A stretch of 64,000 nt of DNA from Pseudovirgaria hyperparasitica (Eukaryota). The notes under the pieces are model-generated. The model saw only the letters and a program-made list of their open reading frames with translations, was not told the origin of the DNA and made no database searches. This document shows, piece by piece, positions 261 to 43,350 of this stretch. The DNA is taken from NCBI GenBank assembly GCA_010093815.1, contig ML996575.1; one strand, 5' to 3'. A program made the translations under genes and the position numbers. The first letter of the stretch is position 1, and every line of letters starts with the position of its first letter.

Positions 261-2610
261 GAATACACCCTATTATTCTATCTTACTACACTACTATCCA
301 ATAACCCTATTCTTACATATAGTTAAGACGTTTTATAGGGTATAGAAGGAGGGCAAGCGAGTATATATACATCTTATTAAATATTATATAGTATTTATTA
401 AATATATAGAAGCTAACGTTAATTACGTGTAGAAAGGTATACTTACCTTATATTATAGCACGTTCCTATAGAAATAGATACTTAGTATTACTATAAAATA
501 AGGTAAGAGACTTAGATACCTTTTTAGAGTTATAATAGTTTAGAAGAATATCTATTATTAACTATACTATATTAAAGGATACTCTATCGCCTTTATAGAG
601 CTTTATAGTAGTATAAAAGTAGGATAGGAAGTAGTAAGTATCCTTGAGTAGCTTATAATCCTTCTTATTTAGGAAGTCCTTATAAAGATTATTATTATAA
701 GCTACGGTATACTAGCTAATAGCCTTCTTTATACGAGGCTTAAGTACGATGTTAATCGTTCTATACTAGAAGTTCTATTAAGTAATATTCTCTTAAGGAA
801 TAGTACGCCTAGCCTACTCTATAAAGCTATTAAATTATTATATACTTCGCCGAATATAGACTTTAATATTATATAGCTTACTAATAGTACCTTATTATTA
901 CTAGCCCTACTTAATTATCTTCTATAAGTCTAGTTTTCGAAGAAATTATATGAAGTCTAGGTCATCTACTATAGATTAGTTAATTATAGAGTCTATAGCT
1001 TTATTACTATCCGTAAATAGGAACGCCTAATAGGTAAGGTTAATAATATAACTAAGGCAGCGAATTTAATAGGCTTAAGGGTCCTATAGTAGAGTTTTAG
1101 AGGTAGATTTAACTATAGAGTCTATAATATTTAAGGTTAAAGATACTATCGGCGGCTAAACCTCGGTTAAGGCCTTAGCGACGTATTTAAGTATCTTATT
1201 ATTTAAAGACGCGTTATTAGATATTAAGTATCCCACCTTATCTATAACCTTATATTCCTTTATTACCTCTAGGAAGGCCTCTAATTACTCTCTACCGCTA
1301 TAATAACCGTATATTTCTAGTAGCGTAAGTAAGGCCTTATAGAGCTTACCCTTAGTAAGGTTAATAAAGTATATAATAATAGCTAAAAGCGACTTCTTAT
1401 TCGGTAACGTCTATAAATTATATAAATAATAGATACTATATAGGTATTCTATTAGGACTTACTTAAGGCGCCTCTTATAGATATCGTAAGAGAAGTTAAG
1501 GAGCTTTAGTATAGCGCTTCTTAACTTAAGGATAAGGTTTTCGGTCTACGGATTAATTACAAGGAATAGAGTCTTTAGTTCTAGCTAGTCTACTACCGTA
1601 TAGGGTAAGTTCTAGATAATAATTAGCTAGATAAAGGCTTCCTAAAAGGTATCTTAATTAATAACCTTATTTAGAACCTTAGTAGTAGATAGTTATAATA
1701 CCTTAGAGGCACGCTCCTTTATCCGCGTAAAACCAGCCTCTAATAGCTTTAATAATCACAACTTCTTTACTACTATACTATCTAGAAATATACCATATTT
1801 CTTTAATAGATAAGTCTCTACGGCACTAGTACTTATAATACCTTTCTAATAGCCTTTAATATTATAGTACTAGATCTTATTTTTACCTCTTATAATAGGC
1901 TTATTCTAGATAGCCTCACGGTAATAATCCTATACTAGATAAATATACTTACGCTTACGCTTACTATTAAGAGAAGGTAGAGAAGATAAGGATTACTATT
2001 TACTAATATTATTATTACTACTTATAAAGAGTAAGTTATAGGCTATTATAAAGAGATAAGGAGATAAGGAGATAAGGAGATAAGGAGATAAGGAGATAAG
2101 GAGATAAGGAGATAAGGAGATAAGAAGGTAAGTTTAAGATATATATACTATAACACCCTAATAGATTACTATACGGATTTAGTAATAAACTAATAAAGGG
2201 ATATTACTATAATACGCCGTTTATAATAGGATATAGTCTCCCTTACTTTATCTATATTTATTATTATCCATGATATAGATAAAATACTATTTTTAGTATT
2301 TATATAAGGAATAACCTAGTAAATGGCGTAAGTTATATAGTAAGAATATAACTCTATAAATAATATATATATCTATAATATTATAGAGAAGAATAAGCAC
2401 TAAAAACGCGTAATTCTATATAGTTTTTAGAGTTTATATAGCGATTTACTAATAAATATTATAGGCGTTATTAGCTATATATCCTACCTTAGATATATAT
2501 ATATTTACCCTATACGGACGTATAGATAAGACTCTACGGGTACGGTATAATGGGGATAGATTACTTATCCCGTAAAACCTTATCCGTACGGGGTACGGAG
2601 TACATTACTA
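261..2610 (-). mobile_element. RIP-inactivated hAT-superfamily DNA transposon relic
   Basis: Minus strand ~1440-1170 reads IYYLYNL*TLPNKKSLLAIIIYFIN...YYSGRE*LEAFLEVIKEY...VGYLISNNASLNN. Reversing C>T/G>A changes gives the hAT motifs DLWTSPN, VVVHF-D, HSG-EQ and GY--SDNASSND. A YSLALLL-P motif lies near 330-365. The terminus TACATTACTA at 2601-2610 fits a RIP'd CAGTG-type TIR. Confidence 0.8.
2053..2124. repeat. (GAGATAAG)x9 tandem repeat
   Basis: Nine perfect 8-bp units read directly. Confidence 0.95.
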
Positions 2611-2639
2611 GCTAGCGCTAAGATATAAAATGTAATTAG

Positions 2640-2875
2640 AGGAGACGGAAGATTACCTAGATTGGGAATCGTACATAGATCTTGATAAAGAAGAGGCAGT
2701 CGTGACTCCGGACAGCTATGGTAGGTTTTCCGATCTTTATATTAAAATGTAGATCGTTATTAATAAGGTGTTAGTCTTCTTTACCCTTGCAAGCATCTTA
2801 TATAGGTAACATGGTATTGTGCTTTTAGAGGAGGATTTGGAGGACAGGCGCCTACTAACGCGTCTTCAACGATGA
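2640..2875 (+). pseudogene. 3' remnant (last two exons) of a fourth member of the secreted zincin-like family
   Basis: Exons 2640-2720 and 2775-2875, joined by a GTAGGT..AG phase-1 intron, give EDYLDWESYIDLDKEEAVVTPDSYVFFTLASILYR*HG... This aligns with the last exons of 3702-4998. In-frame TAA at 2807-2809 (likely RIP'd CAA). The upstream part is replaced by the hAT relic. Confidence 0.7.
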
Positions 2876-3505
2876 AATTCGAATTCCTAGTAATTAAAAT
2901 TTCTTTGTTAGTAGTTAAAGAGAAAGAGGACTAGCCTCTTTAGATTTATTATATCTATTATACATACGAAACTATACTAATTAGATTCTTATATAACCAA
3001 TCTTAAGTAGAAGCACCTAGCTTGATACTTTATTATGAATAAGCTCTAGCGAAAAATAAGGTCTATCCCTACTCTACATGCGCGATATAATATCTTTTCC
3101 CTACCGAGCCGGGATTATCTAGTCAAGTTCTATGACGTGGCCGTGCACGCTCTTAACGCTTTGTAGTAACTCCGTACGCAGCTTAAAATATAGGTATAAC
3201 TCATTAATACTACGGAATATAGATAAATGTATATAAGAGATAGTTATAGTATTACCTTTATCTAATAAGAAACTATATAATCTTCTCTATAGCTACTATA
3301 TTTTATAGAATTTTAAAGTGATAATAGAATTAACATATGTAGAAAAGTAAGGGACGTAGTAATATACTAGTACTAAAAATCTTAGCTCTCGGTGGAAAAA
3401 GTTTTCCACTAGTGATTAGATTCTACGGAGATACTAGACCTACTTTTTTTTCTACGTTAGATGTTATAGATATAGATATATATATATAGATCATACAGCC
3501 TATTC

Positions 3506-3701: not shown

Positions 3702-4998
3702 ATGTACTTTTCGTTAAGCACGACACTCTCCCTTGTACACTCTCTCCTTATCCTCGTCCTACTCTTTGATACTCCTCTGGCGGCGAGGGAGAGGCAGCGA
3801 CTTCCGGTCCCGGACGATCGCCTACGAACTCTAGCGACGGTAGCGGCATCACAGCCGGGGACATTTATTATAAGAGAAACGGAGACGTAATTGAGGTCAT
3901 TGAGTGTATTCTGTAAGTGTGTAGAGAACTGAGTTCTGGGAGACAGAGTCGAAGCTATTTAACCGTTTAGACACTAGTCCCGTTTAGGAAGCAGTGTCTC
4001 TCACTCAAAGTGCCTTCCGACAACAACATTAACTTATGCCGTGCACCCAACGTGCGATAACTATCCGATGCGTCGAAATCTAGACGAAGCTCTAGGAATG
4101 GCTAGGCTAGCGTATGAAGGTCTACAAAACTTTGAGATGCTACCAGCGCACCTTAAGTTTGGCTATCGAATACTATTCCAACGCCTAGAACGTGGCCAAC
4201 AGAATCCGACAGAAGAATTAAACATAGTCACCCGAACAATGAGAAAGATCGCCACCTTGACAGAGACCAGCAGACCGGCAAGCGCAGCTATGATCATCTT
4301 CTGCGATGATTCCCGCTGGGAACGGGAGGGCAATCGTGTCAATGTCGATGTCCATCGTACGCGATGGAAGCCTGACCGCGATTCCGATGAGCGAGTGTGG
4401 GTCGATAGCGTGTTAGGAACGAGATGGGCTGAAACACCATATTGCCGTCAGCCCTTCGATGGAGAACTAGAAAACCCCTACATGTACTACTACCCCTCGC
4501 CGCCTAATAATCCCGATCAGGTCGTAGTCTCATTCTGCGGGAATCAATGGCCCGAGAACAGCTGGGACCTTATCCACGACGGAGATCTCAGTATGCCTAT
4601 TGATGCGCTAACTATGCATAATCTCCGTGGCACCTTTCTAAGTCCCGAACTCCTCTCAATGTTTTTGAATTCGAACCTTTTTAGTGGTAGGTCCAAGTGT
4701 TCCGCGCTCTTCTCCTGGGCATATTTGTCACAGTCCTACGAGTACTAATAGAACAATAGATGAGATGAGGGGAGATAGTCTTGACTGGCCCCAAGTTATA
4801 CAAGTGAGGCGCCAACAGCAAATTCGCAGTAGAGAGAACTATAGTCAGTCTTAAAGATCGTAAAAAGTGCTATGGTACAATCACTAATGCTATATAGTAT
4901 TTTTTGCCATTCAGTTTCTCGTAGACCACATGGGCTTAATGCTTGAGCCGGTACCAGATGGTGTCCTAAATGGGAAAGTCATATGGAAACCGACGTGA
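3702..4998 (+). CDS. Secreted M35/zincin-like protein lacking HExxH (paralogue 1), multi-exon
   Basis: Hydrophobic leader (MYFSLSTTLSLVHSLLILVLLF). The main exon has YAVHPTC, IIFCDDSRW, WVD and SFCG. Exons 4760-4843 and 4898-4998 give DSLDW...RSRENYIFFAI. The 5' exon structure is uncertain. Confidence 0.7.
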
Positions 4999-5210
4999 GC
5001 ATATACAATCGGATACAATCCAAGGTCCCAGATGAGGATTGTGTGATTAGTCACCCTAAAAGTAAGGATTGAGCTTGAAATCTATACCAAGGGATTGAGA
5101 TTGTACCGTCTTGGCAATCATTTTGAGGCGTGGATTGAGCTTGTATTCTCTATTGAAATTTTGGCCCAGATTGAGATTGCGCAGATTCAGATTGTATATG
5201 CCCATCTCTG
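4990..5210. mobile_element. 221-bp hAT-type MITE with 8-bp target-site duplication
   Basis: TIRs are CCGACGTGAGCATATACAATC and (reverse complement) CAGAGATGGGCATATACAATC. Flanks are TATGGAAA (4982-4989) and CATGGAAA (5211-5218). Related copies lie at ~6786 and ~42741. Confidence 0.85.
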
Positions 5211-5497
5211 CATGGAAATAAGCGATAGGAAAGGAGAGAATCAGAGGTGGTAACGAGCGAGGGGCGACTAGGGGCATGCGAAGGAACTCAAAGGACAAAA
5301 GTAACAATAAAAAGGCTCATAGCTTAAGGAGAGCTATTAATCTAAAGATGATACAGGAATTGTATTTTTAGAATGATAATTCGAGACTTGCGCGATTTGT
5401 ACTTTTGTAGTCACACTATAGGTATATAAACAACCTGTATATTCGCATTAATCCTGTAGTTAGCATTAACCTTACGATACACTTCTCTCTACACACT

Positions 5498-6518
5498 ATG
5501 CTCTTACTTATACACCTGCTCGTACTTCTTATAGTACACTTCACTCCCTCGCTGGCAGACCATGACTATGCCTTTCATCCCTCATGCGCTCGTTATCCTT
5601 CAATTCGTGCCCATGCCCAGGAAACTATAAGAATAGCCTCACTAGTCTTCGAGACTGTGCAGGATATAGACAATCTTGGTATCGACGATCTGCGCATCAT
5701 GTATCAGATGACTTTTGAACCAGCACCTCATGATATCGTACTTGTTGCAGAGACTAAACACGCTCTTCTCCAAATGATGCACACAATTGAGGAGTATACA
5801 GAGCTGCAAAGTGGGGACAACGCATTCGACTGGCGAAGCGCAGAGATTCTCATCTTCTGCGATGATGACCGCTGGGTACCGATGCGGGACCGTACCGAAT
5901 TTCCCTCTGGTATCAACTTCCACGGTCACCCTCCCCCTGGGCTACGAAACTCTATGCAGGACCCCGAAAATGTGCTATGGGTTGATCGTGTGATTGGTAC
6001 GGAGATAAGGGGTCCACCGGGGTGTCTTAGAGGGGGAATGCATTTCAGCACGTACAAACAGCATAATAGCAATCCCCAGAGCGTCACAGCCTCTTGGTGC
6101 TCAGGGGGCTTGCCCTCAGAGTCCTATGGTCTTATCCTCGGTCATGATCATAACAATGATTACTTTAGGGAAGATCCGGTCGGATATTTGACCAACCTAT
6201 CTATAAGTCCTTCATTACTAGGTATTTTTCTAAGCGCGCCGCGTGTCCAGCGTAAGTTCTTCGACATTTCTCTTTCTTTTTATAGACATGCTTATAGCGG
6301 TACTACGCATACTAATAGAGTAATAGGAGTCCGCAGGGCCAGCAGTCGGTGGCTATATAGTCATAGGGGCCGTCCCACTGCGGTACCCTTGGACCCTAAC
6401 GGTATTCGTAGGTCTTTAGTATTCCAAACAGGCGAGCAATTATTAACGTCATACAGTATCCTTTGCCATTTTGGTCCTTGTTTTTCAGCTACACACTGAA
6501 GCTTCAAGGCCTAACTAA
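5498..6518 (+). CDS. Secreted M35/zincin-like protein lacking HExxH (paralogue 2), 3 exons
   Basis: Signal peptide ending TPSLA. Motifs YAFHPSC, LIFCDDDRW, WVDRVIGT and SWC. Two phase-1 introns (GTAAGT at ~6252, GTAGGT at ~6408) at the same positions as in the paralogues. The last exon begins LSFAILVLV. Confidence 0.75.
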
Positions 6519-6785
6519 TTTAATCCGTTCGAGTCGTAGTACGGAACGATCATCTATTACATCCTTAGAGATCTATGGCAAGAGGTGGTTACGTGGATGG
6601 AAACAGGGAAAAAGTATATTCTTAGAAAGAGAAAGTAGACTTTCTCAGGTGCGGTTACATGAGCGCAATATGCTCGACACTTTACTCTACTAAGAGGCTC
6701 AGCCTATCGTTCGTGTATCATGTGACAGATTTAAGCAATGCATATAGCAGCTATAGTGTATTACAATAACTTTAGCTTACATCCT

Positions 6786-6971
6786 TAGACATAGGCATAT
6801 ACAATCCGAATTCATACAAGCTCAATATGGGCTAAACTTTGAATAGAGAATATAAGCTTGATCTACGCCTTATATGATTACTAAGACGGTGTAACCTGAA
6901 TCTATACATTGAGGGTAATTAACAACATAATTTCGATATAGACCTTCGGCTCTTACGTAACGATATATGCC
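6786..6971 (-). mobile_element. Inverted, RIP-mutated, internally deleted copy of the 4990-5210 MITE
   Basis: TAGACATAGGCATATACAATCCGAA...AATAGAGAATATAAGCTTGATCTACGCC matches the reverse complement of 5100-5210, with mainly C>T/G>A differences. The far end is degenerate and no TSD was found. Confidence 0.75.
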
Positions 6972-7157
6972 GCAATATAATTTTGAATCTAAAGATAGTA
7001 TAGATTTCATATTTTTAGAATGAGGAGCTGAGATTTGCGCGATTTGCACGCTCCATGCTTTCGTAGTAACACTTTGATAGATTAGATATTTAACTGACCT
7101 CTATGCTAGAATCAAGTGCGTATTAGACTTAACATGATATAACCCTCCCCAAGTACA

Positions 7158-8179
7158 ATGCTCTCTCCTATATACCGTCTCGCGCTTCTCACAACGCTCT
7201 TTACTCCTTCTCTGGCGGCGCTCTATTATGCCTTTGATCCAGTATCGTGCGCTGAGTATCCTTCGCTAAGTGATCATGCCACGGAAGCTAAAACTATGGC
7301 AAGGCTAGCCCTCGAGAGCCTGCAATCAGTACATGCCTGGAGCAGAGATAGCGACCACAAGCGGCTGTTTCGGCAACTGTTCGGACTCGATCGCAATTAT
7401 GTGGAGATCCAAATGATCAGAGGCTCACTTGCGGATTTCTTTTGGATGCTTTCGACGCTTCCAGAGGCGTTCGGCACAAGGGCTAGAATCTTGTCAATGG
7501 CAGACACAATCATCTTCTGCAATGATGATCGCTGGCAGCAGCTACCGGACCGTCCCGAATCTCCCCCTGAGCTACGCAACTCTGAGCTGCCGGTTAACCA
7601 ACGAATGTGGTTTGATACTGTAGTCCGTATGAGGACGAGGGGCACGCCAGGTTGTCTTCAGGAAGGAATGGATGACGTGTTCTACCCAAGCTCGATCAGG
7701 TGTTATGCGTGTACTCAATTCTCATGGTGTGGAAATCGATGGCCAACAGACTCATACCGTCTCATCTCGAACCCTGATAACGGTGCATCCATCCGCGGTT
7801 CAAGGATCAAAGACATCACCGGAAATTATCTAAGTATTGTGTTTCTACGTATGCTTATACGCTCGCCGCGCATGCAGAGTAAGTTCATTAGCATTCCTTT
7901 CCTTCTTATAGTCATGCTTACGATGGTGCTGTGCGTACTAACAGAGTAATAGTGGTTTTTCACGGGGCGGACGCGGCAATACGCGATCAGTCTAGTAACT
8001 CAGGACCCTACAATAGGAAACGTCTTTGTAAGTTTTTAGTAACCTAAGAAGGCTTACCAAACAAGTATTGATCTCATACAGTGATGTATGCCGTGGGGGT
8101 CTATCTTAATCACCTAGGCTACAGGTTTGAATGGGATTCTCGTGGTACAACGAATTACCGGATAGTAGGGGCACCTTGA
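7158..8179 (+). CDS. Secreted M35/zincin-like protein lacking HExxH (paralogue 3), 3 exons
   Basis: Signal peptide ending TPSLA. Motifs YAFDPVSC, IIFCNDDRW, WFD, GTPGCL and SWCG. Two phase-1 GTAAGT introns. The last exon LMYAVGVYLNHLG...* ends at 8179. Confidence 0.75.
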
Positions 8180-8935
8180 GCTCGAGACTTGAAGACGCAT
8201 TGCAGGAAGCAATAATGCGCATGAAGACGGAGGAAGAAAGTATACTCTCTCGGGGGGACAGTATAATTACTGGGGCACGGTTGCAGAGGACATTGAGATA
8301 AACAGACCATGATCTCCAAGGGTGACAGGTTGGTTGAGATCATTACATAAACTTATCCACTGTTCCTTCTGGACGGGTGTATGTTTGCCTTCGACACAGG
8401 CGCAATACGATACGACTCTGTGCTCTAATGAGAGCTTAACCTTGCCGTTCGTGCATTTGGCTTGACTCAAACGGCTTTAGCTGTTATAAATGTGTTCCGA
8501 GACGCACACATCGCCCTAAAGTGATATGCTTGTATTCAGAGTTCCTAACAATCAGTTCAGTTCAACTTTGGGCCTCTAGTTGAACTGGACTGAGTCAATT
8601 CTGGAGAGGCAGAATTGAAGTTGGACTGATTATTAGGAACTCTGCTTGTATTGATGTTGGAAGAAGTGCCAAAGTCGGCCGTAAGATACGAATACTATTA
8701 TGTGCTGGTCTATAAGAATCAGACAGGCAGCACAGATCTACAAATAGTGCAAGGTTCGTTATGATCGATGTACCTTGTCCATAAAAAGCTGTACACAACT
8801 CCTGAAAGAGGTATAGCGCTAAATATTGCATGTGATGTCACTGTGGGGAACGTGACTATACATAGATGTGTGATATGTTTATAATTCCAACATTAGCGAA
8901 CCAGAGAGCAAGGAGTGCTTTAAATTTCGGCCATT

Positions 8936-10452
8936 ATGTCAAAAATAGCGAGCAACCCGATCGAAGTGCGCGAGCAGTATTTCTGGCGTGGCGACAAACG
9001 AGTGGGTCACAAGCTCTCTCTTCAATTAAGAGATGCGAGGCTAACAAGTGAAGCAAAGTTCCTTATCCGTGGCATCGTGTACCACCACAATGTCACCAGG
9101 AACCAGGGAAGAGTGGCCGTGACAGAGCCAAACGATCCTATCGCAGACGACCGACTTGACAGGCTAGAATCCGATATCACCATGTTCAAGGAACTGGGCG
9201 TGAACACCATCTACGTTTGTCAGTAAATTCCAAGACCCCGTAGAAAACATAGATCTTTGACTGTCAAGACTGGATCGATGCTACTAAAGAACACGCCAAG
9301 GCTATGAGACTGCTCGAAGAAGCGGGCATCTATGTTATTTGCGTAGGTTCCCATCCTGAAGATCCGGTGCGATAGCTGAAAGTCTGAGAGACACTGGCAA
9401 CAAATGAAATCAGTATTTCACGGATAGATCCAGTTGGCTCCTATACCGCTGCTCTTATGCGACATTTCTTCGAGACGCTCGACGAGATGGCCAAGTTTCC
9501 CAACACCCTTGGCGTGATGGTTGCATATGAGTTGATCAACGACACTCAAAGTATGAAATGCGCACCTGTCTTGAAAGCAGCCGTGAAAGACCTGAAAAAG
9601 TATATGAGATTCCAAAGTGAGTCTACTGGGCAGAGGGTCCTTCCGATTGGATACGATGCATCGTCAGCACGTTTGCCACTATTTGAGACGTTATATTACT
9701 TGTCATGTGGCGACAGTGATGCTCGGATTGACTTTGTGTCTGTAAGTCGTGCATGTAGAGTGATGTCTTGAGATTATCTCTGACACGTTGACAGTGCAAG
9801 GGGTACGAGTGGGTTGGGAGTAAGTCCAGCATCAAAATCAGCGGATGGCAGACACTGGTGAGAGCATAGTTTGCGATTGTGAAAAGTGTGCAGGAGTGAC
9901 AGTTTGAAGATCGAACAGTTTCAGCATCTTCCTACGCCTATATTCTTCTCCGAGTACGGCACAACCATGCCCACGTACACTGTGAGCGCCACGACGGAGT
10001 CACGCGAGTTCACAGAGACCTCAGCCTTGTTCTCCCCGGCAATGACTCATGTGTTCTCGGGAGGTTGTGTGTACGAGTTCTGGAGGAGTAGGAATGGATA
10101 TGGTATGGTCAAGATGCAAACAGAGCGAGAAGAGATGATGGAGAGAGATAGCGAGACACTGTCTAAACAAGAGCTCGAGGAGAGATATGGGGATGAGCTT
10201 CAAGTCTTCCAAGGCGGAGCAATTGTGGAGAAACGTGCTGGTCCGTTGGGAATCATGCTTGTGTATGCTGATTTCTTCAACTACCAGAAACGTCTGGCAG
10301 CAGCGCGAGAGGTGGAGCCGAACACGCTTGCAGCGCACACAGATCGCACAGGGTACGAGCGAGTGTTTGAAACGGTGCAACGACGCGATATTGCCGACAT
10401 GGGCGAGGTTCCAGATAGCCCTATAGATTGGGCGCAATTTATCAATCTGTGA
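8936..10452 (+). CDS. Glycoside hydrolase family 72 (beta-1,3-glucanosyltransferase-like), no signal peptide or GPI signal
   Basis: FLIRGIVY, DPIADD, ELGVNTIYV, YELIND (acid/base position), PIGY, FFSEYG (nucleophile) and VFSGGCVYEF across about six exons. Confidence 0.85.
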
Positions 10453-11413
10453 TACTTGGTTCGTTTCACGAAAGCAGTTATGCGCTGAACATACCGGCAC
10501 AGGTCTCATGTATACAACACCATGTTCATACCACGCGTGGTTGTGCAACGCAAACTGTCATGATGATGGACGAATTGAGATATAGTTGCATACACTTCGT
10601 CACAACAGTCTGCTCCGCTGATAATGATATCATCCTCCGCCAATGATACAGTACACCTTTGTGCTTTTCCTTATATGGATGTAAGACTGAGCTGGTAGAT
10701 CCTGGCCTCCATGTTATCATATCATCCTCAAGCGCATTGGATTTTAGTTATGCAATTGACCGGAGAGTGACTCTGACTCCTAACATATTTACTTGCACAG
10801 TGACGACAGAGCCTAATCATTGCACCTGCGCGTGTCCCTGTCAGATGTCAGCATGCAGCATCTGATTTAGCGCGTCCTAGCTTGAACGATCCGAGATGAG
10901 TCTTCTTCCGCCACAAAGCTAGCGCTCACCATCACCACCAATGGGAGATCCATTATGACGTTGTCTAGCAGCTTGTATGTGGTCCGAGGCCCATGGCTTG
11001 TCGAAATTGCGGGGTGGCTCCAAAGCTCCTGAGTCCCTCTGTATGTGACAAGTCCTTGGCACATGGCATGGGGGGTTCTGCGATAGGTGTCAAGAATGGA
11101 AATGACGAATGTGAACGCTTTTAGGTTCTGAGAGAATGTGAGAATGAGAATTATTCACACTGAACGAGGTCAGTATCGGTTTCAGGTAAGGCGAAATGAT
11201 GGTTTAAGGATTTCGACAATGAGGTGTCATAGAGTCTGTAAAGCTCTTGTATTCATGATGTCTGGGTATCGATTATAGAGTTATCTTCATCACGCCGCTG
11301 TTGCGAACCGCGGTGAGAGTGAAAACAGGTTATTAGTGTTTTTCATCAGTGACGTCGATGGATGATTGTTGGGCCGTCGCGTAATCTCGTGCTTCTGCCT
11401 CCAACATCGAAGC

Positions 11414-12050
11414 TTACACCACCATCTTCCTGCTGCCACGCTTTTTTGCGAAGAAGGTCACTCCGATAGCCATAAGGAACATGACCATGCCGAGGAATAA
11501 GAAGACGTAGTCGGCTTGTCCTCTCTGGCAGCGGCCTTTCAAACTGTTCGCCCGTGTTTGGACATCGTCTTCATCGTCTCCAGGCCGTCCTCCGGTGCCG
11601 CAAAGTCTCTCGCCGTCCTGCTCGATGCATCCACCGTTGACGATCTTATTATCGAACAGGGAAGGGTAGTTCTGTAGGCTAGAGCTGCAAGATAAACCCT
11701 TCATAGCCACGGTAAGTGCCTGTGGCAGTCAGTGGACAAGGTCAAGACAGGGCACACGAATAGCGTATAATCAGCCCGGCATTGTTACTACTTACAATCC
11801 CACCCGCGAGGAAGATCAGTGCACTCAAGGCGTCAATAGCGATGATAACCAAGGCCGGGATAGCTTCAATGAAAGACGCGATGAGACCAATTGCAGCAGC
11901 GACCAGGCCCCAGCCGCCACAAAATGCGGCATAACCAGTCGTAGCAGGTGCCTTGCCTACTGCTTGCCATTGAGTCATGCTGACTGACAGTCCCAGAACA
12001 ATCGCGGCGAAGATGAGCTGGAAAGCTCGAGTGACGAGTGTAACAATCAT
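11414..12050 (-). CDS. MARVEL (membrane-associating) domain protein
   Basis: RAFQLIFAAIVLGLS, YAAFCGG, DALSALIFLAGG, then RCQRGQADYVFLF. Four TM segments and one intron (~11795-11721). Confidence 0.8.
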
Positions 12051-12973
12051 GTTGCAAGTTTGGTTGATCGGGTCGTGTCGGAGGTGTGTGTGTATTTTCG
12101 ACGTCTGGAGTAATTCTAAGCACAGATGTGTCGACAGCAATTGAAATGTTGCAAAATAAAGGGTGGAGCGCAATGGATGCGGTGTACGCAGAGATGGGAA
12201 CCTATATATCCTTTTAGCGCAGCAATATTACAACACCAGCCTGTGGCTCTGTTTCGTTCGTTATGGCCCAGTAGCACAGCCCAAACAAGATTAGCAGCAG
12301 CCGTTGCTTGGAATGATTTGCTCATCCATGACGAAGGAACGGTAGCGACTTTCCAAGTTCGCCAATTTTGGAAAGGCTAGCGCATTGATGCCTACAGATG
12401 AGATCAGCTGCATCCCGATGGATCTGTTGAAACACGTTAGATCCCAAAGCCACGTTCTAATTGTGGCGGGACACTCATTGGATATTCTCCAAAATTAATA
12501 GATCTTTCAGCACGAGGCGCTCTATGCTCATCCACTAGGACGTTGTGGTATGACGCGTTGAAAGTTCGTGTTGACAAGGGCTGTTCAACGGCAATATTTA
12601 TATCTGCAGTGCTGCAGGTGTGTTCATTCCATGATGTGTCAGCTACCCCATGTCGATCGGGAGTTGCCCGAAGCTTTAAGCGACTTACAATAGCTTTCGC
12701 CTACCAACCAATAGTGAGTACACTCGACGCCGATTTGCTAGTGTTCCAGCCAACTTACAGGAAGGCAGATTCAGCCTCGTGGATAGGCTACGCTGCATGA
12801 ACGATCAAAGTTCCACGCATGAAGAGAGCAGACAGTGCCTGATGATGCTAGCAGGGATGCTGATGAAACGGAGACTAAGAAGTAATAAATTGTGACCGCT
12901 TCAGGCCGTGATGTTCTATAGTCCATCTTTGCTATCTTTGACAGAGATGCGGTATCGAAAGTCGAGAAAATGC

Positions 12974-14070
12974 TTAAAGCTTCGGTTGCACCCCTTCATC
13001 AGCCGTGGTATCATCGGTCCTCTTCAATATCCATTCAATGACGTCGTTCGCAAAAGTTTCACGGTCAGGCGATGGTTCGAAGTGTACTGTGAAAGTAAGT
13101 CCAGAGAACAGCTGATTGGAGAGGCGCACTCACATTGATGGTACCAACCGTCGTAAACCTTGAACTCAAAGTCTTCTATGTCCTTCTTTTCTCTGTCGCA
13201 GAACTTCTTGGTCGCATCGAAACTGCATACCCTGTCACCAGTGCCGTGGCTAACCCACATTCTAGTCCTTCCGCCTTGGCCTCGCCCTTCGCTGATCCTC
13301 AACTTTCCGCTCTCCAACAGATCAGCTCTTTCGAACATCCCCGCTAGTCCTTCGAGGGTGCCCGTATCGTGACACAGCGGATCATCCACGATGGACTGAT
13401 TGTTTTCTGGGTCTCTTGAGATATAGTCCGCTTTGAGCTTATCGGTCCTCTGGAAATTTGGTGCCAACTTCGCAGCCAGTTTTCCAAGTGTTAACACAAG
13501 CTTCAGTGGTTGTGATGCCGGATCGAGACCGATGAGGGGCGCCTCTGCAAGATATCCCCTTATATGCTGACGGGTGTCTGCTGGACCCATCGCTGCGTAA
13601 GTAAGAATTTCACCGCCGCCCATCGAGTGGCCCATGAGGAAGAGTGGCACAGATGAGGGTATGAGCGTATTCAGGAAGGCTGTGATGTCGGCATGAACGC
13701 GAGAGGTAGGACCTGTCAGGCCTCTTTCAGAGGGTTTCTGTACAGAGCGACCCCATCCACTGCATGTATATTAGTCATAACCAACATTATTCAAGCCGTC
13801 ACATACGCCTGGTCAAAGGCACAAACTTCGATGCCGTTTGATGCTAGAGTCGGGAAGAAAATGCCGTATCGGCCGCAGTGGTCGCTATAGCCGTGCACGA
13901 AGGCAACGCGCGCTTTCGCAGGTCCGTCAGTCTACCTCTATTGTCAGCTTCTGAGTTTGTCATTATAGCGGGGAGTGAGTGCAACCTTCCATGTCTTTGT
14001 ATATAACTTTCGATCTTCGAACTCAAGCGAACCCTCTACTGTCGACATTTTGCAGAATATTGTTGGACAT
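12974..14070 (-). CDS. Alpha/beta hydrolase, monoglyceride lipase/lysophospholipase (Yju3-like)
   Basis: FVHGYSDH, FDQ-GWG, GHSMGG nucleophile elbow, HGTGDRV and YDGWYH. Three introns. Confidence 0.85.
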
Positions 14071-17195: not shown

Positions 17196-17752
17196 TTCCG
17201 CGTAGGTGCATCATGTGACCATGATTCGCTCTGTGAAACACATTGAGCATGCAACTTGATCACGGTTTGTGGGCTTGGGAAAATGGAGTAGAGGTCTGGG
17301 CAGTCCTAAGAGGACGGATTGATACCATGGGCACGACGCCGTTTTTGATTGTCTTTATAACCACATCTGAAAGCATACACGAACGCCATGTGTCCTCTAT
17401 TTACTGTCGAATACTAGCCGAATATTTGAATAAATTTTTATCATGAGTTCTGTGTTCAGAAGAATGTAGAGCACTGCTACTGATAATACAAGGCAGACTG
17501 ATATTTTACCAGTAGCTTCTCGCTCGTGCCGTCAAAGGTATATTTGCGCGTAATCGCAGTCGAGGTGAGTGGGAGCGCTCGTACGCGTTGCCCCTTGCAA
17601 CACTAGCGTCTGAGCGCAACGTGCAAGACGGAGTTGAAGCTCAAGCTTCAGGTCGCGAATATATCAATTCCAGGCAATCCATCGCATTATGCTTGGCTCT
17701 AATGTATAGTTCTAGCTCCTCATGTATAGGCGACCTTCTTTAACGCACTGCG

Positions 17753-20700
17753 ATGATCAAATTGGCCAATCCCACCACGACGACCCAGACACGCGCCGAC
17801 AACGTACGACTGGCTTTCTCGGAACCTACAACATGCTCGTCAGCCACCGTGTCGGAGCTTGGAAACTTGCTGTTCCCAAAGGGAGAGGATGAGGAAGACA
17901 AGGAAAATACAAAACCAAGACGAACAAAGGCTGCTACACGTTTAGCATCGACGCGTCTGAAACCAACGAGCTCGACCCGAGCCACCACAAAATCTGCCAC
18001 TGCGACAATTGATGCGCACTTTGTAATCTCACCGAAAGAGCGTTTTACACTCGCGACCGACGTCGTGAACTCGTCGTTGAAAGTTCTCGCCGCCAGTCTC
18101 AAACTGCAGCTCAAGGTCCACTCGCCGTTATCAACAATTCAAAATGATGCTCCTATGCACAAACGAAGCGCCTCCTCTCCATACTTAGATATCAATGCTA
18201 AGATATCTACAAAGCCTTTACGAACGAAGACCAATAACCACCTATCTAATGGTAATAGCCGGTCCGCGCGTCCACGATCGTCTTCCTTCTCTTGCGGAAC
18301 CGACAATGAACCTTCTTCCCATATACTGGCAATCGCGGAATGCGCAAGATTAGCATTTGCATACCTGAGGTCCGGTGAAGCCAGAAAAAGTAACGGAAAA
18401 GATTTGCCACCGCTTCAGATCGAGCATGGAATGGTTGCGCTAGTTGGCAAACTTCTTGGACACGGGATGACCTCATTAGCACTTAAAGAGTTACAAGTAC
18501 TCAAAAGTAGACTTCGAAGTCACATGTGCCCGAAGGCGGATGGATGCGACACTGCCACAAGTCCGATTACGATCGCCTCACTTCTGGCATTCGAGTCAAT
18601 ATCTTACGAGTCCTCTGCGCTCCCAATCGTCATTTCATTCCAATTACAAGTCTTGAGAGTTGCTGCATCATTGAGACGGCCCAAAGCGATCGAGGGCATA
18701 CTGAAAGAACTGGACCTAGAGAAGGAAACTGCGCCCGCCAACATCATCCTGCAATCTGCCAATAATCCAGACCAGCGCAGCAAAGCAGCCCGACAGCTGG
18801 AAACACTCGCCCAGAGCCTGCTTTCTTTATGCCCAAGTATTGCATCGAATCAAGATGAGGCAGCTAAAGACGCGAAATTGAAGCCAAGCCCCGATGCGGT
18901 CTTCCAACTCCAGCGCATTGCATTCCAGGTCAGGCTGCTTTGGTGGAAACTCGCAGGGCATAGAGGCGATGTCAATAAAGAACTCTGGGAACCATTTACA
19001 AAATGCATGATGGCTTACACTAGACGCTCCGTGACGCCGAAAGTGCACCAGTATCACATTTGCAAGAATCAGTTTTCAAAACTTGATGCTTCCTATCGCT
19101 CCCTGCTTTTGACTACATCAATTTCCATACCATCCCATACCGCTGCATTGTTTCCGATCCAACGAACCCTGTCCAATCTAGCCCAGTCCGCTGGGCTTTT
19201 CGATGAAGCTGTAACGTTCGCCCAGACGGACCAAGATTCAGCCGCCCAGGGAGATGCTACAACTGCCAGTAGCACCATAAAAATTGCTGCCATTGGGATT
19301 GATCGAGCTTTGAGTCAAGGTTGGGACGAGGAAGTAGAGACGCAGGTCTCTTTGGCGCTGGATGCATTGAGCAAACGAGGTGCTAAGACCGAGAACGATC
19401 AAAACTCGCTTCTTGGCGCTGTTATTGCGTTGCGTAGATCTGCCACGAAAGTTTTCGTGGACAGAGAATCTTCGGACTCTACTACTCGAGACCTACACTT
19501 ATTCTCATTCAAGGCCATCTCAGGATGCATAGCCTTTCTTGGACGCCACGTCGACAGTCCTTCTCGCTCCATAGTTCATCCAGAATCCCAGAGCCCAGCT
19601 GGGGTAATAGAGAAAACCGCCAAAGCCTTCATCGACTCTGCAATCATTGCCTCCAAACTGCTTATAGCTCGCGGACTATTGGGATTCGACGAATTAGATC
19701 TATGTCTCCAGTCATGCCAGACACTACTAAAAAATCTGGAGCAGTATTGCATTACAGAAACAGAAGATAGTGACACACACAAGAATATGCAATTTCCTTT
19801 GGTAAAAGTGTCTAATGTGTACTGGGCTTGGGCCCTCAAAGAGAAGGCTCGAGAAGGTGCTCCACTCGAAGATGTCTTCAAGTCGATGAGAAGCTCAATC
19901 GAGGTTCTAACGTTTTCCTCGTTCCATGAACAATCTTCCGGTAGCATTTTGTTGAAATGTGCAAAAGCAGGAGAACTCTTTAGAAGTCACAAGCGCGTTA
20001 GTGAGGCGCGTGAAATGGTCAGCCTCTCCATCCGATGCCGTACCAATGCTGGAGTGTTGACAGTCGCTGCTGCACTCGCCGATTCACAACCCCTCGACTC
20101 AGTCTGGAACAGCAAAGAAGAACTGATATCATATCACAAAGACCTGGAGACCCTTTTACGCCTCGGTGTGTTAACTGGTGATGGTGGATTCTACGACGAC
20201 GTAGATCTGAATTACTTGGAGAGGGCGGCACTGCTGGAATGTCAGTTGATACTCATCTGCCGCAGTTCTGCTGTGTACAACAGGCTTGAAGCTGGCCAAG
20301 CCACAGCTACATCGATTGCCACCATGACGCTCTCACTCTATACTCTAGACGAATACCCCGTACGCCGATTGAGAGTTCTGCTGCAACTCATGCAGGCACA
20401 GTGGGAATTTCCGGAATTACTGGATCTTTCAATCTGCTCCCTCGTCAATGAAGTATATATACGTACACCTGAAAATCTTGGTAAAGATTCCGAACTAGGC
20501 TCCTATATGCCACATCTCAAGAATACATTCGAAGTGCGACAAAATCTACAGCAGCCCACACCGGATCCAGACAAAGTGAGAAGCAACCTCGAGGTATGGG
20601 ATGCAATGGTCAAGGAGTCAAAAGACCGTATTGGTTTAGGAAAACTGGTTGATAGCTTCGATAGCTGGATCAACATCTTGCACACTGTTGGCGACTTTTT

Positions 20701-23700
20701 CGAATCGAGAGGCCACGACAATATGCAAATCCCTGTTCTCAGTCTAGTCACCAGAATCCTACAGCTTGAAGGGTTAGGAAAGTCTTCTCAGCTACTCACG
20801 AATATGACGCGACTGGGCAGACAGCTCCTGACTCTCGGCTACCCTGCTGAGGCCCTGAAACTGTTCAACCGTGGCAAAGATGTACTACAGAGCGCTGACG
20901 TGACTACTGAATCAAAACTGCAGTATCACCTAGCATATGCAGAGTTCTTGTCCTCTATTGGCGACTCGACGAGAAGTGTTAACGAGTTGCGGGATATTGA
21001 GCGTCTGATCGAAGCCAAAGATGTCCTTTCTGATCTCACCAAACCCGCAACTACTACCAACGTACGGCTAAACCTGCACAAACTTCTAGCGCAGGCCAAC
21101 TTTGCGCATTCTCTTTTGTCCATGCAGACTGGTGTCCCAAAGGATGCTCTACAATACGCGAAGCGGTGCGTGTTATTGAATCGACGCATTTGGGTCACTA
21201 TAGAAAACAGAAACAAGGGAAACCAGAAGACTGTTTCCTTAGACGGGAATGTGTCGGACGCAAGCGATACTGTATCTCGTATTGGAAATATGACACTGTC
21301 CAGTGATAATCATACCCCGATATCAATGACGCACGGCAGCCTCACCGGACCAGAGTTCTGGACCCTCGTTCCGGTAATATTCACGGGTCTGTCGCAGCTA
21401 GCTCAGGTTTGTGAAAGTCAGGGCATGGTCGGCGAGGCAATCTACTACCTCGAGCAAGCATTTAGGGTCGCAGACGCGGTCAAGGCCACTTCTTGGCTTC
21501 TCGGGAATCTGAGCACTCGCGCCATTATATGGGCTAGAGCGGGTAATATCGACAAGGCTCAAATCTCCCTAGAGCAAGCTAAATCATTCCTCAATATGAC
21601 TGTGACTACAGGAGAGGCAGCTACCTACCATAGTGCTGTTGCAGCTGTATACCGGGCTATGGGCGACGTGGACAATGAGATTCAGGCTTTAAAGAAAGGC
21701 CAGCAAATCTTAGCAAATCTCAGCAAGATGCCTTTCACTAAGTGGCTTGATGGGCTAGATCCAGTGGGAGCCGAGCTGGGCACGAGAATGTCCGAACTCT
21801 CTTTGGACAGCGCCACTGCTAAAGCCTATACCCCAGCACGAACAGACACGATATCAGGGTGGGCTAAGAAGCCAAATCCCAGGATTCGAGCGAAGACATT
21901 TCATACGATGACACGAACCACCGAAAGCGACCCTGTAGTGCCCGCAAATCCTTTGTTCTCTCCTATTTCTGCATCTCGTGCAGAATTGCTTCGTCAGGAA
22001 GCCTTTGCTGAGCTGGCACGGGACAACAAAACTAGCTCTGCCGCCCTACTAGATGAGGCTGAAGCATGCTATGACTGTGCTCAAGGCCATGTTGCACAGA
22101 ACATTGCACGTATCAAACTGCTCATGGTCCAGTTTCAGAGTGCTGTGAATGCTGACTTCACTTTCAATGGCCTGCCAGAATCAACCGTCTCTTTTCCGTC
22201 TGTTAGAAGAAGTGAGAGGAATAAGTCGTCCGTGGCGAATGCTCCAAGGCCTGATCCTTTGGGCTCGAGGGGGAGAAGCAAGAAGACGTCCAAAGCGAAG
22301 GTCGTTGCGAATGAAGACTTTGTCAGCATGCTAAGACAAGCCCATGTCTTCTTGTTGGAGACTCAACCACTCGCGCTCAAGAGTGCACATAGCTCAGTCA
22401 TGCATCAGGTGTGCAAACTTGCGAGCTCAATTACAGTCCTCCTATCAGCTGTTCATTGCCTTGCACCGGATGTGTCGTTGCATCCTCTACAAGCAGCGTT
22501 TTCATTTGGTACGCCTACCACTATACGATACAGCATATCCAGCTAACAGCGCTAGGGCATCCTCTTAACCGCACTCTGCAGCTCGAACAGGCGTCTATAG
22601 AGATAGAAGTGAACTCTACAGCCAAAACATCTTTAATGCAATGGCCGACTACAACAAGGTCGAACGATACAAGTGCCTCCTCGGCTTCGGAGTTTCAACG
22701 CCTATTCGTCGATATCATACCGGAGAACTGGTCAGCGATTGCACTTTCTCTCAGCGAAGCCCGAGACGAGCTATTCATTACGCGGTATCGCTCAAGTGAA
22801 ACACCATTTATCCTACGCCTTCCCATGTCACGCCACACGTCCCGTGACCTGGACGAGGAGACATTTTCTTTTGATAACGGCAAGTCAGAACTTGTTGAGA
22901 TCATCGAGATGTCTGACTTCAGTACGCATGATGGTCGAGACGTATCAAGCAAAGAGGCTAAAGCCGACTGGTGGGCTGAGCGCGAGGCCTTGGACGCTCG
23001 GCTGCAAGATCTCCTCGTCAATATGGAAAACATCTGGCTAGGTGGCTTTCGCGGTATTTTCTCACAGCACATGACGCAAATAGACCTGCTGTCGCGCTTC
23101 CAAAGGTCATTTGAGAATATCCTAAATGTGCACCTGCCATCAAGAAGCGGTAAAAGCCAGCCACCAAAGATCAATCTCGACTCGCGGATACTAGACTTGT
23201 TTATTGGGCTTGGTGATCCGTCAGCCGAAGAAGCCGATTTTGAGGAACCGTTGATGGATCTGGTGTACTTTGTCATTGACATTCTACAATTCAACGGAGA
23301 AAGTAACGCTTACGATGAGATTGATTTCGACGCCATCGTCGTTGAAACATTGGATATACTGCAGACGTATCATGCCGAGGCGGAATCTGAGCCAGCGCAA
23401 CCGCAGCATACGATTCTTATTCTCGATAGCGCACTCCACTGCTTTCCTTGGGAGTCCCTACCGTCCCTCCAGCATATATCAATATCGCGACTCTCATCTC
23501 TCGCTGCTCTACGTGAGCGTCTATTATCTCGCTCGGCACCATCCAAGATTGGTGCAGACCATGACCCTGGCCACTACGTCACGCCGACAGGCAGTACCAT
23601 CCTTAACCCGTCGCGCGACCTCACAAACACACAAACCCTTCTCTCTCCCTACCTAAACGCACTCCCTGGTGCCTGGTCTCACATTACTGCCCGGGATCCT

Positions 23701-24249
23701 ACGGAGTCTGAATACGAGTCGGCTCTCCAGAACAGCGAGCTACTGCTCTACTTTGGGCATGGAGGTGGAGCACAGTATATTCGCCAAAAGAACATCAAGA
23801 AGTTGTACGTTCGAGACGCGTCTGATGAGAGCACGAAGCCACGATGCGCAACGACGTGGCTGATGGGTTGCTCATCGGCACATCTTACTGAACAAGGCAC
23901 ATACACCCCGTCCGGCACAGTCGCGTCGTACATGACGGCAGGCGCACCAGCAGTGCTTGGGATGTTATGGGATGTCACCGACAAGGACTGTGATCGATTC
24001 TCGATTCGATGTGGTGCGGTATGGGGGCTGTGGCAAGAACGAGAGGAGAAGGGAAGAAAGAAAGGACGGGCTGCTAAGAAGACTGCTGAGATGACAGCCA
24101 AGAGGAAATCAAAGGAGAGAGGGAAGCAGAAGTCTAGGGGTATAAGTCTGGACGACGCGGTCAGGAGCAGTCGGGATGCGTGTTATTTGAGATATCTGAA
24201 TGGTGCGGCGCCAGTTGTGTATGGGATTCCGGTATACCTGAATGGGTAG
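17753..24249 (+). CDS. ESP1: Separase (separin, peptidase C50)
   Basis: ~2150-aa protein with a long helical N-terminus. The C-terminal protease domain has FPWESLP, YFGHGGG (catalytic His), LMGCSS (catalytic Cys), LWDVTDKD and YLNGAAPVVYGIP. One intron near 22510-22555. Confidence 0.97.
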
Positions 24250-29958: not shown

Positions 29959-30816
29959 GTTGTAGGGTGGTGGTGGAGAGGGGTGGAGTGGGATTGTTCT
30001 GGTTTGTGTCTGTGTATACGCGCGTTGTGCAGTCATGGTCATAACAGTGGACAGTTTCCTCGGGATTTCTTTGTGCGTCGTCTCTTGGCCGACGAATACT
30101 TAAGGTATCTGTCCATCCAATTCACTAGACACCCGTCCTATAGAGTTCCAAGCCACTCGAATACTTCATTCTACACAGGTTACGAAGAACCTCACAACCT
30201 GCTCAAGAGTTATCACATAAATCAGTTCATCATTCAGACCCCACAATCATATGCATAACATCAAAGCAGACTTACTCAAAAAACGACGAGCTTCATACTT
30301 CTCCTACGTTGCAACTTTCCCCCTGATTACTCACTATTGAACTTTGTTCAAGTAACTCAGTCGTACACATATCGAAATGCATAATCGCGTGGCATTTGTA
30401 GATATAGTCCCACAAAGCCGTATCACATCGCATCATAGTTCCAACTCAAAGGATCATTTCTCTAGGGACATCCTACTCGTCAATCGTCTTGTTATACCTG
30501 TCGAGAGTCAATGAAGCCATGATAAACTACATTTATTGTAGCCTGTTTGCCAAGCAGAAAAGTGCTATGGAATGCTCGGTCCTTGAAAACAGACAACACA
30601 GCCACTTCACTTCGCGTCAATCCGAGGTTTGGAATGCGAAGTCGGTGGCGATTGGATTTAGGCACCCGAGTATCATGGTGTATATATGTATCGCATTTCT
30701 TCGGGCAAACAGTGCTTTATCATGCTTTATCATATAACAAGGCTTTACAGCATTGTGAGCGGCGCATTGTTCATTATTCCATCGCCCTGTTCTCCGTATC
30801 CAAAACATCATCCCGA

Positions 30817-31863
30817 ATGCCGTCATCAACGTTACCCAACGATCCTCCATGGTCCGGACGGTTTTGGACTACCAATGATAAAAACCACCTGCTGGCGCTA
30901 CCCCCCGAAGTTCTCCTCATCATCCACGCCCACGTCCCCGGCCACGTGCAAGAAGCTTTCCGCCAAGCCTGCGCGAAACCCTACCATGTATTCAGTTTTG
31001 CGTCCTTCGCCCGCACCAGTACACGTCTAAGACTGAACCTCCACCATGAAACAGGCGACCGCGCAGAAGGCTTGCTTGCCGAACAAAGACTGTTCAAGGA
31101 GGCTCTGAAGAGAGATTTATGGTACACGGGACCTGTTCGCAACGAACGACGTCGGGAGGCGCATATGGGGCGCGAAAGGTGTTGTTCGACGTGTCTGCAG
31201 ACACATGACCGGCAGTTCTTCACAAACGCGGAGATGGAGAAGGATCCGGGTGAGAGGCGGTGTGTGGGCCAGCAAGGAGACCTCGTAGTCGTGACAGGAG
31301 GGGACACCACGATGATGAGAATAGGAGGAGATGACAAGCCCCTGACCTGGGCGAAAATGGTCAAACTGGATTTCCAGGACCCAGTCGACAGGGTATCGTC
31401 TTATCGATTGTTTGCATGGCCACCGAGATCACAATCGACATACAGTAGGGAAGAAGCGCCGGAAATCACGTACACCAGGTTGGATGGATACAAATTGTCC
31501 TTCCGTCGAGTCCTGTATGTTTCCATCACGGATGGTAGCACGTCGTACGATCAGGACGTTCAATGGCAGCATGTACAGGAACCTGCGCCGCATTACATAT
31601 GTCCGCACGTTGCACTCACGGCGGAGTCCTTGACGGAAGGCTGGCCTCTGCTGCACTCGCCTTTTGGTCGAGAGTGTGCAGTCAGGCGCTGCAGCACAAA
31701 GTGGTGGCTTGAGAGATTAGACGTTGACGGAGGTTCGAGGAAGGAGATAGTTCTCAAAGTAGAAAGAGGACTAGGAAAGGGCCCGACCGATCCGAAGTGG
31801 TTGGCACAGCTCAGATCAGACCAGGGGGATGTGCAATACCGTATCAGTCAATTGATCAGATGA
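30817..31863 (+). CDS. F-box-like domain protein
   Basis: LLALPPEVLLII F-box-like start, a CSTCLQTH-...-RRCVG Cys/His cluster, ICPH and C-terminal DPKWLAQL. Confidence 0.6.
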   Translation: MPSSTLPNDPPWSGRFWTTNDKNHLLALPPEVLLIIHAHVPGHVQEAFRQACAKPYHVFSFASFARTSTRLRLNLHHETGDRAEGLLAEQRLFKEALKRDLWYTGPVRNERRREAHMGRERCCSTCLQTHDRQFFTNAEMEKDPGERRCVGQQGDLVVVTGGDTTMMRIGGDDKPLTWAKMVKLDFQDPVDRVSSYRLFAWPPRSQSTYSREEAPEITYTRLDGYKLSFRRVLYVSITDGSTSYDQDVQWQHVQEPAPHYICPHVALTAESLTEGWPLLHSPFGRECAVRRCSTKWWLERLDVDGGSRKEIVLKVERGLGKGPTDPKWLAQLRSDQGDVQYRISQLIR

Positions 31864-42740: not shown

Positions 42741-43350
42741 CAGACGTGAGCATATACAATCGGATACCATCCAAGGTCCTAGATTAGGATTATATAATTA
42801 GTCACCCTAAGGGTATAGGTTGGGTTCATAATCTATGCTAAGAGATAAAGATTAATTATGTTGGATTAAATGAAGTAGGGTATATACCCAAGGGGCCTTA
42901 CTTAGGTATTTATTTCTACTTGAGGCCTAAACTTAAGCCTTAGACTTTAATATTCAGGCCTTGATAATGCCTAACGAAGTGTCTTGGCTATACTTCGGTA
43001 TGTACTCTACTCTATTTAATCTATTAAAATCTATCCAACCGATTAGTATTAAATTATACCGTCTAAGTTGCTAAGTAATTATGTAGTTAATAATTTAGCC
43101 GAAGTAACCCCCGGCAGCCTTCTATCATCCGCCTCTTATTCTCATCTCTCTCTCTCTGTCTATCTCTCTCTATAATATGTGTTTTTAACTAATTCTGACC
43201 TCTTGGGCTTCAGAACAACGTTTATACACGTGTTCTTTGACCGATTTTGACTAATTCTAACCTTATAGGCTACGGATATACACGTGCTTCAAGCTTATTC
43301 TATATCACTTAGTAAGATGGCTTAGATATAAGGTATAATAGGCGATTCGT
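42741..43350 (+). mobile_element. Third MITE copy followed by an AT-rich RIP-like tract
   Basis: CAGACGTGAGCATATACAATCGGATACCATCCAAGGTCCTAGATTAGGATTATATAATTAGTCACCCTAA matches 4990-5060 with C>T/G>A changes. The right end is not resolved. Confidence 0.75.

Follow-up and report, generated by a model that had tools for sequence, protein, structure and literature searches.

An expanded family of M35-derived proteins without a zinc site in the mycoparasite Pseudovirgaria hyperparasitica

Effector families consisting of dead enzymes are known from plant pathogens. The RALPH effectors of powdery mildews are described as a secreted enzyme fold that has lost its catalytic residues, expanded and diversified (PMC12018790), and the pseudo-ADP-ribosyltransferase (pseudo-ART) effectors of Magnaporthe oryzae follow the same pattern (PMC9447291), binding to host proteins being shown or proposed for both. 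The latter source also describes MoCDIP5 of M. oryzae, which resembles a metallopeptidase of unspecified type and lacks the conserved catalytic residues. In Phytophthora, the non-enzymatic paralogue XLP1 stands beside the active enzyme XEG1, for which it serves as a decoy (PMC12003678). Here, we analysed a window of 64,000 nucleotides from Pseudovirgaria hyperparasitica (contig ML996575.1 of assembly GCA_010093815.1), which contains a tandem array of three genes, P1, P2 and P3, related to the M35 proteases (deuterolysins or aspzincins) and, as judged from alignments, devoid of the zinc site. A sequence search identified the P1 protein as identical to a public protein of this species. P. hyperparasitica is a mycoparasite living on rust sori, as reported in PMC3317363 and PMC7082219; its host is the rust fungus and not the plant.

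Active M35 proteases are reported to require the motif HEXXH together with the Asp of the motif GTXDXXYG (PMC3938660; PMC12924839). According to a survey from 2026, all 139 M35 proteins of Dothideomycetes keep the three ligands and the catalytic Glu, inclusion having required a match to the Pfam domain (PMC12924839). With M35 proteases (PDB 1EB6; PF02102, PF14521), and in particular with the nearest relative, the paralogue P0007, the copies lacking the zinc site, hereafter the dead copies, have in common the fold, a signal-peptide-like N-terminus and the C-terminal helix after N-A-D/E-N-Y. They likewise have the four-Cys scaffold of P0007 and of the metagenomic locus L001, and both intron positions of L001. 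In contrast to M35 proteases, they contain no HExxH, no third-ligand Asp and no Tyr-Gly, and give no Pfam match. The Pra1/Aspf2 zincophores (HRxxH plus His; PDB 9N47; PF13933) are a secreted, non-proteolytic derivative of the same fold. Pra1, which is ancient and widespread, keeps both His residues and binds zinc (PMC12663325), whereas the dead copies have been found in one species only and have lost both.

The descent of P1, P2, P3 and a fourth, remnant copy from an M35/aspzincin protease, which the earlier note on this DNA had proposed, is shown by the agreement of an intact paralogue, a profile match, intron positions and a fold search. The intact paralogue P0007 (EJ05DRAFT_513790) from the same species contains HELTH, YGW and NADNY and passes the cut-off of the Pfam family Aspzincin_M35 (PF14521) with an E-value of 6.4e-7. 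It also appears in the M35 list of PMC12924839 (supplement file 3), which gives four M35 proteins for the species, the dead copies not being among them. Two intact HEMTH relatives originate from metagenomes, namely P0010 and L001, the latter being the one stretch confirmed out of 128 candidates. Both P0007 and L001 have no propeptide and contain an extra Trp-rich hairpin (RW...WVD) that is kept in all dead copies. Profile-profile alignment (hhalign) of seven dead with the three intact sequences yielded a probability of 99.9% over 277 columns and placed LSPELLSMFLN opposite LSHTILHELTH, gap-free through the site helix. With a profile built from P1-P3 only, each of the three intact proteins was recovered (E 1e-19 to 1e-21). 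Moreover, both introns of L001 are in phase 1, the first interrupting the codon of the sixth residue past the second His and the second the codon that directly follows NAENY; P1, P2 and P3 are interrupted at the same codons. L001 also encodes, on the minus strand at 1028-3182, a large Cys-rich multi-exon protein arranged head-to-head with the intact M35 gene (4001-~5100).

When the AlphaFold model of P1 was compared with 48,161 chains by VIA-align, the top four were deuterolysin (Z 7.5; root mean square deviation (rmsd) 3.7 over 138 residues), Pra1 (Z 6.6), AsaP1 (Z 5.8) and a Grifola peptidase (Z 5.7), values that, being under 8, are weak on their own. The model of P0007, used as a control, gave a Foldseek probability of 1.00 (E 0.014) and matched deuterolysin in VIA-align with a Z of 13.8 (rmsd 2.6 over 161 residues). 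Searching PDB sequences with profile A1, which includes P0007, retrieved 1EB6 at E 0.017. The profile and structure comparisons suggested by the earlier note thus returned a strong match to the intact P0007 group and a fold match to deuterolysin that is top-ranked but weak; together with the match of P0007 to deuterolysin and the shared introns, they support both the aspzincin fold and homology to a confirmed M35 protein. Pfam (PF02102/PF14521) assigned no M35 family to the three exons from the window, nor to P0001-P0006 and P0009. Alphavirus macrodomain matches in both PDB profile searches covered about 30-40 residues with E above 0.08 and were taken as chance, and WW-domain rows in Foldseek (E above 3) were too weak to be considered.

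The position of the HExxH motif is occupied by SMFLN in P1 (4656-4670), GIFLS in P2 (6221-6235) and RMLIR in P3 (7848-7862), in gap-free register with HELTH/HEMTH. Thus, the helices LLSMFLN, LLGIFLS and FLRMLIR are located as previously described, and alignment with the intact proteins bears out that both His residues and the catalytic Glu are lost in all three. When the site residues were tabulated over seven aligned dead copies, the position of the first His contained seven different residues (S, G, R, Y, Q, I, E) and that of the second six (N, S, R, L, E, L, K), none of them the His that the HRXXH plus His triad of Pra1/Aspf2 would demand; M or I was found at the Glu position in six of the seven (M, I, M, G, I, M, M). 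Neither of the two candidate columns for the third-ligand Asp holds an Asp; they read M/G in P1, V/R in P2 and M/F in P3, and the Tyr position L, S and A, respectively, the alignment of exon 2 of P2 and P3 being uncertain for these columns. The D-x-x-D-W of P1, previously compared with D-x-x-Y-G, is one residue out of register relative to D-x-x-Y-G-W, and the third ligand is therefore not kept in P1. Neither HEXXH nor the Asp/Tyr-Gly motif of active M35 proteases is present in P1, P2 or P3. At the level of aligned residues, the loss of the zinc site in the dead copies is hence shown. Since no conserved His, Cys or acidic column was found near the site among the seven aligned dead copies, no substitute metal site is evident. 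The His/Cys/Asp/Glu columns conserved among them comprise only the four Cys, an H/D position near the N-terminus, a single Glu and three acidic positions; all are located outside the site and are matched in residue type by the intact proteins.

The family, the size of which was drawn from protein searches, is larger than the three genes originally recognised and not confined to this locus: five further dead copies are dispersed elsewhere in the genome, making eight in total. A phmmer search with exon 1 of P2 against 1.84 billion representatives, the single query on which the lineage-specific expansion rests, gave eight hits, seven of them from P. hyperparasitica; the eighth, P0008 (Ig repeats), was dropped as spurious and unrelated. 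P0004, P0005, P0006 and P0009 are full-length paralogues without HExxH on other contigs, and the public model P0003 lacks the site helix. Word-indexed searches were insensitive, as P1 and P0007 each retrieved only themselves and profile A1 three proteins, missing most of its own members. The eight dead copies form one branch against the three intact proteins (support 100/99), which is retained at 100/98 upon removal of the site and C-terminal columns, with a warning for long branches. The phmmer hits and the dead clade together indicate a lineage-specific expansion of divergent, catalytically dead paralogues, and because the eight copies form one branch, the alignments suggest one loss of the zinc site followed by expansion. 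A separate clade of the three tandem copies was rejected (p-value of the approximately unbiased test (p-AU) 0.001). Unnamed ascomycete clusters of the Atlas, with proteins of 290, 228 and 345 amino acids, score 0.91-0.95, with 0.95 for P1, and may hold further dead M35 proteins; the family may therefore extend beyond one species.

Within the array, in which P1 spans 3702-4998 (Table 1), the earlier description of three co-oriented, strongly diverged paralogues holds, with pairwise amino acid identities of 26-31%. All four motifs on which it relied are present once per copy: the first reads YAVHPTC, YAFHPSC and YAFDPVSC in P1, P2 and P3, IFC(D/N)DxRW occurs in all three, and the remaining two are WVD, WVD and WFD, and SFC, SWC and SWC, respectively. 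The six introns are GT-AG, 49-75 nucleotides long and in phase 1, two being at equivalent codons in each gene; the public model of P1 uses both. The N-termini, judged by hydrophobicity, are hydrophobic in all three and end in the TPSLA/TPLAA of the family. Signal-peptide-like segments in continuous open frames, as claimed earlier, are found in P2 and P3, whereas in P1 such a segment is separated from the body by stop codons. The word TTGCGCGATWT has three matches in the 64 kb, one upstream of each paralogue, the mean expected by chance being 0.04. Weaker copies of this upstream motif lie at 3077-3105 and 3295-3323, with a spacing of about 215 nucleotides ahead of the copy of P1, and are possibly relics of further duplications.

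The array is situated at the edge of a block affected by repeat-induced point mutation (RIP), as noted before: from position 1 to ~3500 the TpA/ApT ratio is 1.3-1.9, compared with 0.69 in 10000-64000, and the composite RIP index reaches +0.9 to +1.8. A tandem repeat, ATAAGGAG, is located within this block (2048-2132, 10.6 copies). The pseudogene ending in PDSY/VFFTL is real, though it is the remnant copy within the RIP block and not part of the stretch 3702-8179 to which it had been assigned; its exon 2 and exon 3 pieces scored higher against the family than all shuffled sequences (0/1000 and 0/500 as high, respectively). Among the public models, P0001 begins at Met 4068 of P1, without a signal peptide, its C-terminal end being identical to the P1 body. 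P0002 (EJ05DRAFT_502000) is an annotation chimera in which the start of P2 is fused to most of P3, the last 200 amino acids of P3 being identical to its C-terminal part. One source calls P0002 a nucleotide-diphospho-sugar transferase; the fusion and the label both look wrong.

Table 1. Coordinates of the array and associated features in the 64,000-nucleotide window.
Feature	Position	Strand	Remarks
RIP-mutated AT-rich block	1..~3500		flanks the array; GC 0.30-0.32
Fourth copy, remnant	2636..~2873	+	exon-2-like fragment (2636-2720), intron (2721-2774) and a broken final exon containing an internal stop
TTGCGCGATWT before P1	3506..3516	+	
P1 start codon and signal-peptide-like segment	3702..3785	+	hydrophobic 9-mer, Kyte-Doolittle (KD) 3.3; resembles N-terminus of paralogue P0009
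243-nucleotide segment without counterpart in P2/P3	3786..4028	+	four in-frame stops
P1 body	4029..4998	+	exons 4029-4686, 4760-4843, 4898-4998; SMFLN at HExxH position
Small element with terminal inverted repeats	4996..5204		starts at P1 stop codon
TTGCGCGATWT before P2	5388..5398	+	
P2, 298 amino acids, signal-peptide-like start	5498..6518	+	exons 5498-6251, 6327-6407, 6457-6518; GIFLS at HExxH position
Inverted, more mutated copy of 4996-5204 element	~6787-7000		
TTGCGCGATWT before P3	7035..7045	+	
P3, 297 amino acids, signal-peptide-like start	7158..8179	+	exons 7158-7878, 7953-8027, 8082-8179; RMLIR at HExxH position
Partial copy of 4996-5204 element	42750-42853		

P2 and P3 are open three-exon frames, which at a rate of synonymous substitution (dS) near 0.86 still have splice signals, the four Cys and an exon 2 with a length divisible by three. 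Neutral simulation gives a probability of at most 0.003 that a frame is still free of stops at 0.3 substitutions per site; every pair retains its four Cys, where 0.3-0.7 would be expected. Because stop-free frames and retained Cys residues exceed the neutral simulation, it can be strongly inferred that the open frames and the scaffold of four Cys were maintained by selection through most of the history of the copies. Ratios of nonsynonymous to synonymous substitution (dN/dS; Nei-Gojobori method, NG86), the comparison put forward earlier, are 0.61 for P1/P2 and 0.52 for P1/P3, both pairs being near saturation, and 0.87 for P2/P3, with a bootstrap interval (0.62-1.19) that spans 1. A retained non-proteolytic role is supported only indirectly, by the selection that formerly acted on the frame and on the scaffold of Cys and Trp.

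A peculiarity of P2 and P3 is exon 2, which corresponds to the former third-ligand loop. The two genes are 77% and 73% identical in their introns and 70% in the promoter, and share only 25 of 75 positions in exon 2, the alignment of which is no better than that of shuffled sequences (78/200 as high). This divergence exceeds neutral simulations at three rates (P <0.0005; 0.0015 at dS 0.66; 0.026 at dS 0.86). As exon 2 has no resemblance to the family in any frame, its divergence may be due to diversifying selection, to paired frameshifts or to decay. An alternative frame of exon 2 of P3 that appears family-like by eye is not significant, 288 of 1000 shuffles scoring as high.

We lean towards the explanation that the dead copies are secreted, zinc-free M35 scaffolds which bind and do not cut, and whose former cleft would contact variable targets while the fungus colonises rust sori; the disulfides bracing them would be formed by the four invariant Cys. 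One M35 gene would have lost the zinc ligands, the catalytic Glu and the Asp/Tyr motif, probably once, and would then have been copied at least eight times in a restricted lineage. The helix presumably stays folded, with a hydrophobic Met/Ile at the former Glu; free variation could occur at the two positions once held by His and in the cleft loop encoded by exon 2, so that variable protein targets met in the rust sorus might be bound. Copies beside RIP blocks would be born and die, the remnant being dead, P1 probably dying, and P2 and P3 intact. The earlier note had considered expression in planta; as the organism is a mycoparasite of rust sori, any target would more probably belong to the rust fungus or to the environment around it.

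By analogy, the dead copies would work most like the RALPH or pseudo-ART families, from which they differ by an M35 instead of an RNase or ART fold, by a fungal instead of a plant host and by a much smaller family size (8-9). A more specific version of our explanation, which we put forward tentatively, is that they are effectors in the manner of RALPH, comprising at least eight secreted proteins that use the fully de-metallated scaffold for binding. Their hypervariable former cleft, formed by the former His positions and the exon-2 cassette, might recognise rust proteins; RIP would supply the diversifying mutations, and selection would hold the frames open.

Several observations weigh against a retained binding function on an M35 scaffold. 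With respect to the fold, the model of P1 is mediocre (predicted local distance difference test, pLDDT, 61.8), although it places the motif within helix 191-201, Foldseek ranks deuterolysin first at a non-significant E of 1.4, and the Z values of P1 are weak, as stated above. A profile of dead copies only found no M35 protein among 21 matches to PDB sequences with E up to 10. With respect to the genes, neither exon 2 of P2 nor that of P3 matches the family in any frame (288-765 of 1000 shuffles as high), the dN/dS interval of P2/P3 includes neutrality, and a copy that died no more than ~0.05 substitutions per site ago would retain an open frame in 22-28% of cases. In P1-P3, TpA is enriched at codon junctions in a RIP-like manner (0.47-0.54), the range in 20 further long frames, some of which overlap in antisense, being 0.05-0.43; the comparison with neighbouring genes gives p 0.02. 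The 243-nucleotide segment of P1, which has a RIP-like dinucleotide bias (TA/AT 15/9) and no second copy in the window, contains in-frame stops at 3888, 3930, 3960 and 3975. Of 14 GT-AG pairs that bypass them, only 3887-3991 and 3887-3994 have a consensus-like donor. Because the stops can be bypassed with a consensus-like donor only by such an intron of 105-108 nucleotides, in neither version of which a clear branch site was found, P1 is, as far as its sequence tells, probably a young pseudogene with a broken 5' end. A homology of the segment to the N-terminal extension of P0005 was unsupported (473-931 of 1000 shuffles as high).

These features would also be expected if the duplicates were relaxed or recently dead, that is, once selected and now decaying without function at RIP edges, and the remnant copy, the stops in P1, the dN/dS interval, the scrambled exon 2, the codon-junction bias and the P0003 model without a site helix all fit such a decay. 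We consider it unlikely, as P2 and P3 retain open three-exon frames, splice signals, four Cys, the promoter word and exon-2 lengths divisible by three despite a dS near 0.86, four paralogues on other contigs are full-length, and exon 2 diverged faster than in neutral simulations.

The presence of the intact paralogue and three further M35 proteins in the genome, together with the precedent from Phytophthora (PMC12003678), would be in line with dead copies acting as decoys that soak up host inhibitors or receptors and shield the active M35 proteases of the fungus. XLP1 and XEG1 are a single gene pair, whereas here many copies have only ~20% identity to the active enzyme. Such a role appears improbable: the dead copies are 19-25% identical to P0007, the cleft residues, which an inhibitor would have to recognise, show the lowest conservation, and no inhibitor of M35 proteases from rusts was found in the literature searched. 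The passages of PMC8364246 contain nothing on decoys. A substitute metal site or new catalytic activity, as in a zinc scavenger resembling Pra1 (PMC12663325) or another enzyme, could be invoked on the grounds that the M35 fold has been turned into a zinc binder there and that some copies are rich in His (16 of 298 residues in P2), and is very improbable given that Pra1 keeps both His residues, the dead copies neither, and the conserved columns lie outside the site. Equally remote is that the dead copies bind, restrain or chaperone the active paralogue in trans, since, although the part of the P0007 model that aligns to mature deuterolysin starts at residue 23, right after the signal peptide, eight divergent copies without conserved surfaces are difficult to explain by one partner. 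Prediction of a complex of P0007 with P0001 spoke neither for nor against it (score 0.00).

Regarding the genomic surroundings, the element adjoining the P1 stop codon belongs to a dispersed type of about 210 nucleotides with terminal inverted repeats of 18 nucleotides, similar to miniature inverted-repeat transposable elements (MITEs), with copies at 4996-5204, 6787-~7000 and 42750-42853. An inverted repeat or hairpin of 108 nucleotides (8537-8644) lies between P3 and a GH72 gene. The neighbours in 8924-13770, 17744-24246 and 37507-39960 encode a GH72 glucanosyltransferase, a MARVEL protein, an alpha/beta hydrolase, a separase (C50) and a HET-domain protein. Three long open frames (30526-31860, 48044-49186 and 58742-62689; 444, 380 and 1315 amino acids) gave no Pfam match at E 0.01.

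In the literature searched, we found no dead-enzyme effector family in which an M35 fold has been deprived of both its zinc histidines, nor one from a fungus attacking other fungi. In this mycoparasite, M35 pseudoproteases that are fully de-metallated have undergone a real and apparently undescribed expansion. Domain-based surveys of M35 proteins are blind to the dead copies, and public annotation fuses or truncates them. With an active founder, intact dead copies, a dying copy and a remnant, the family provides a clean series for the birth and death of pseudoenzymes under RIP. If the proteins bind rust proteins, they would be testable candidates for the means by which a hyperparasite recognises or disarms rusts, which would be relevant to biocontrol.

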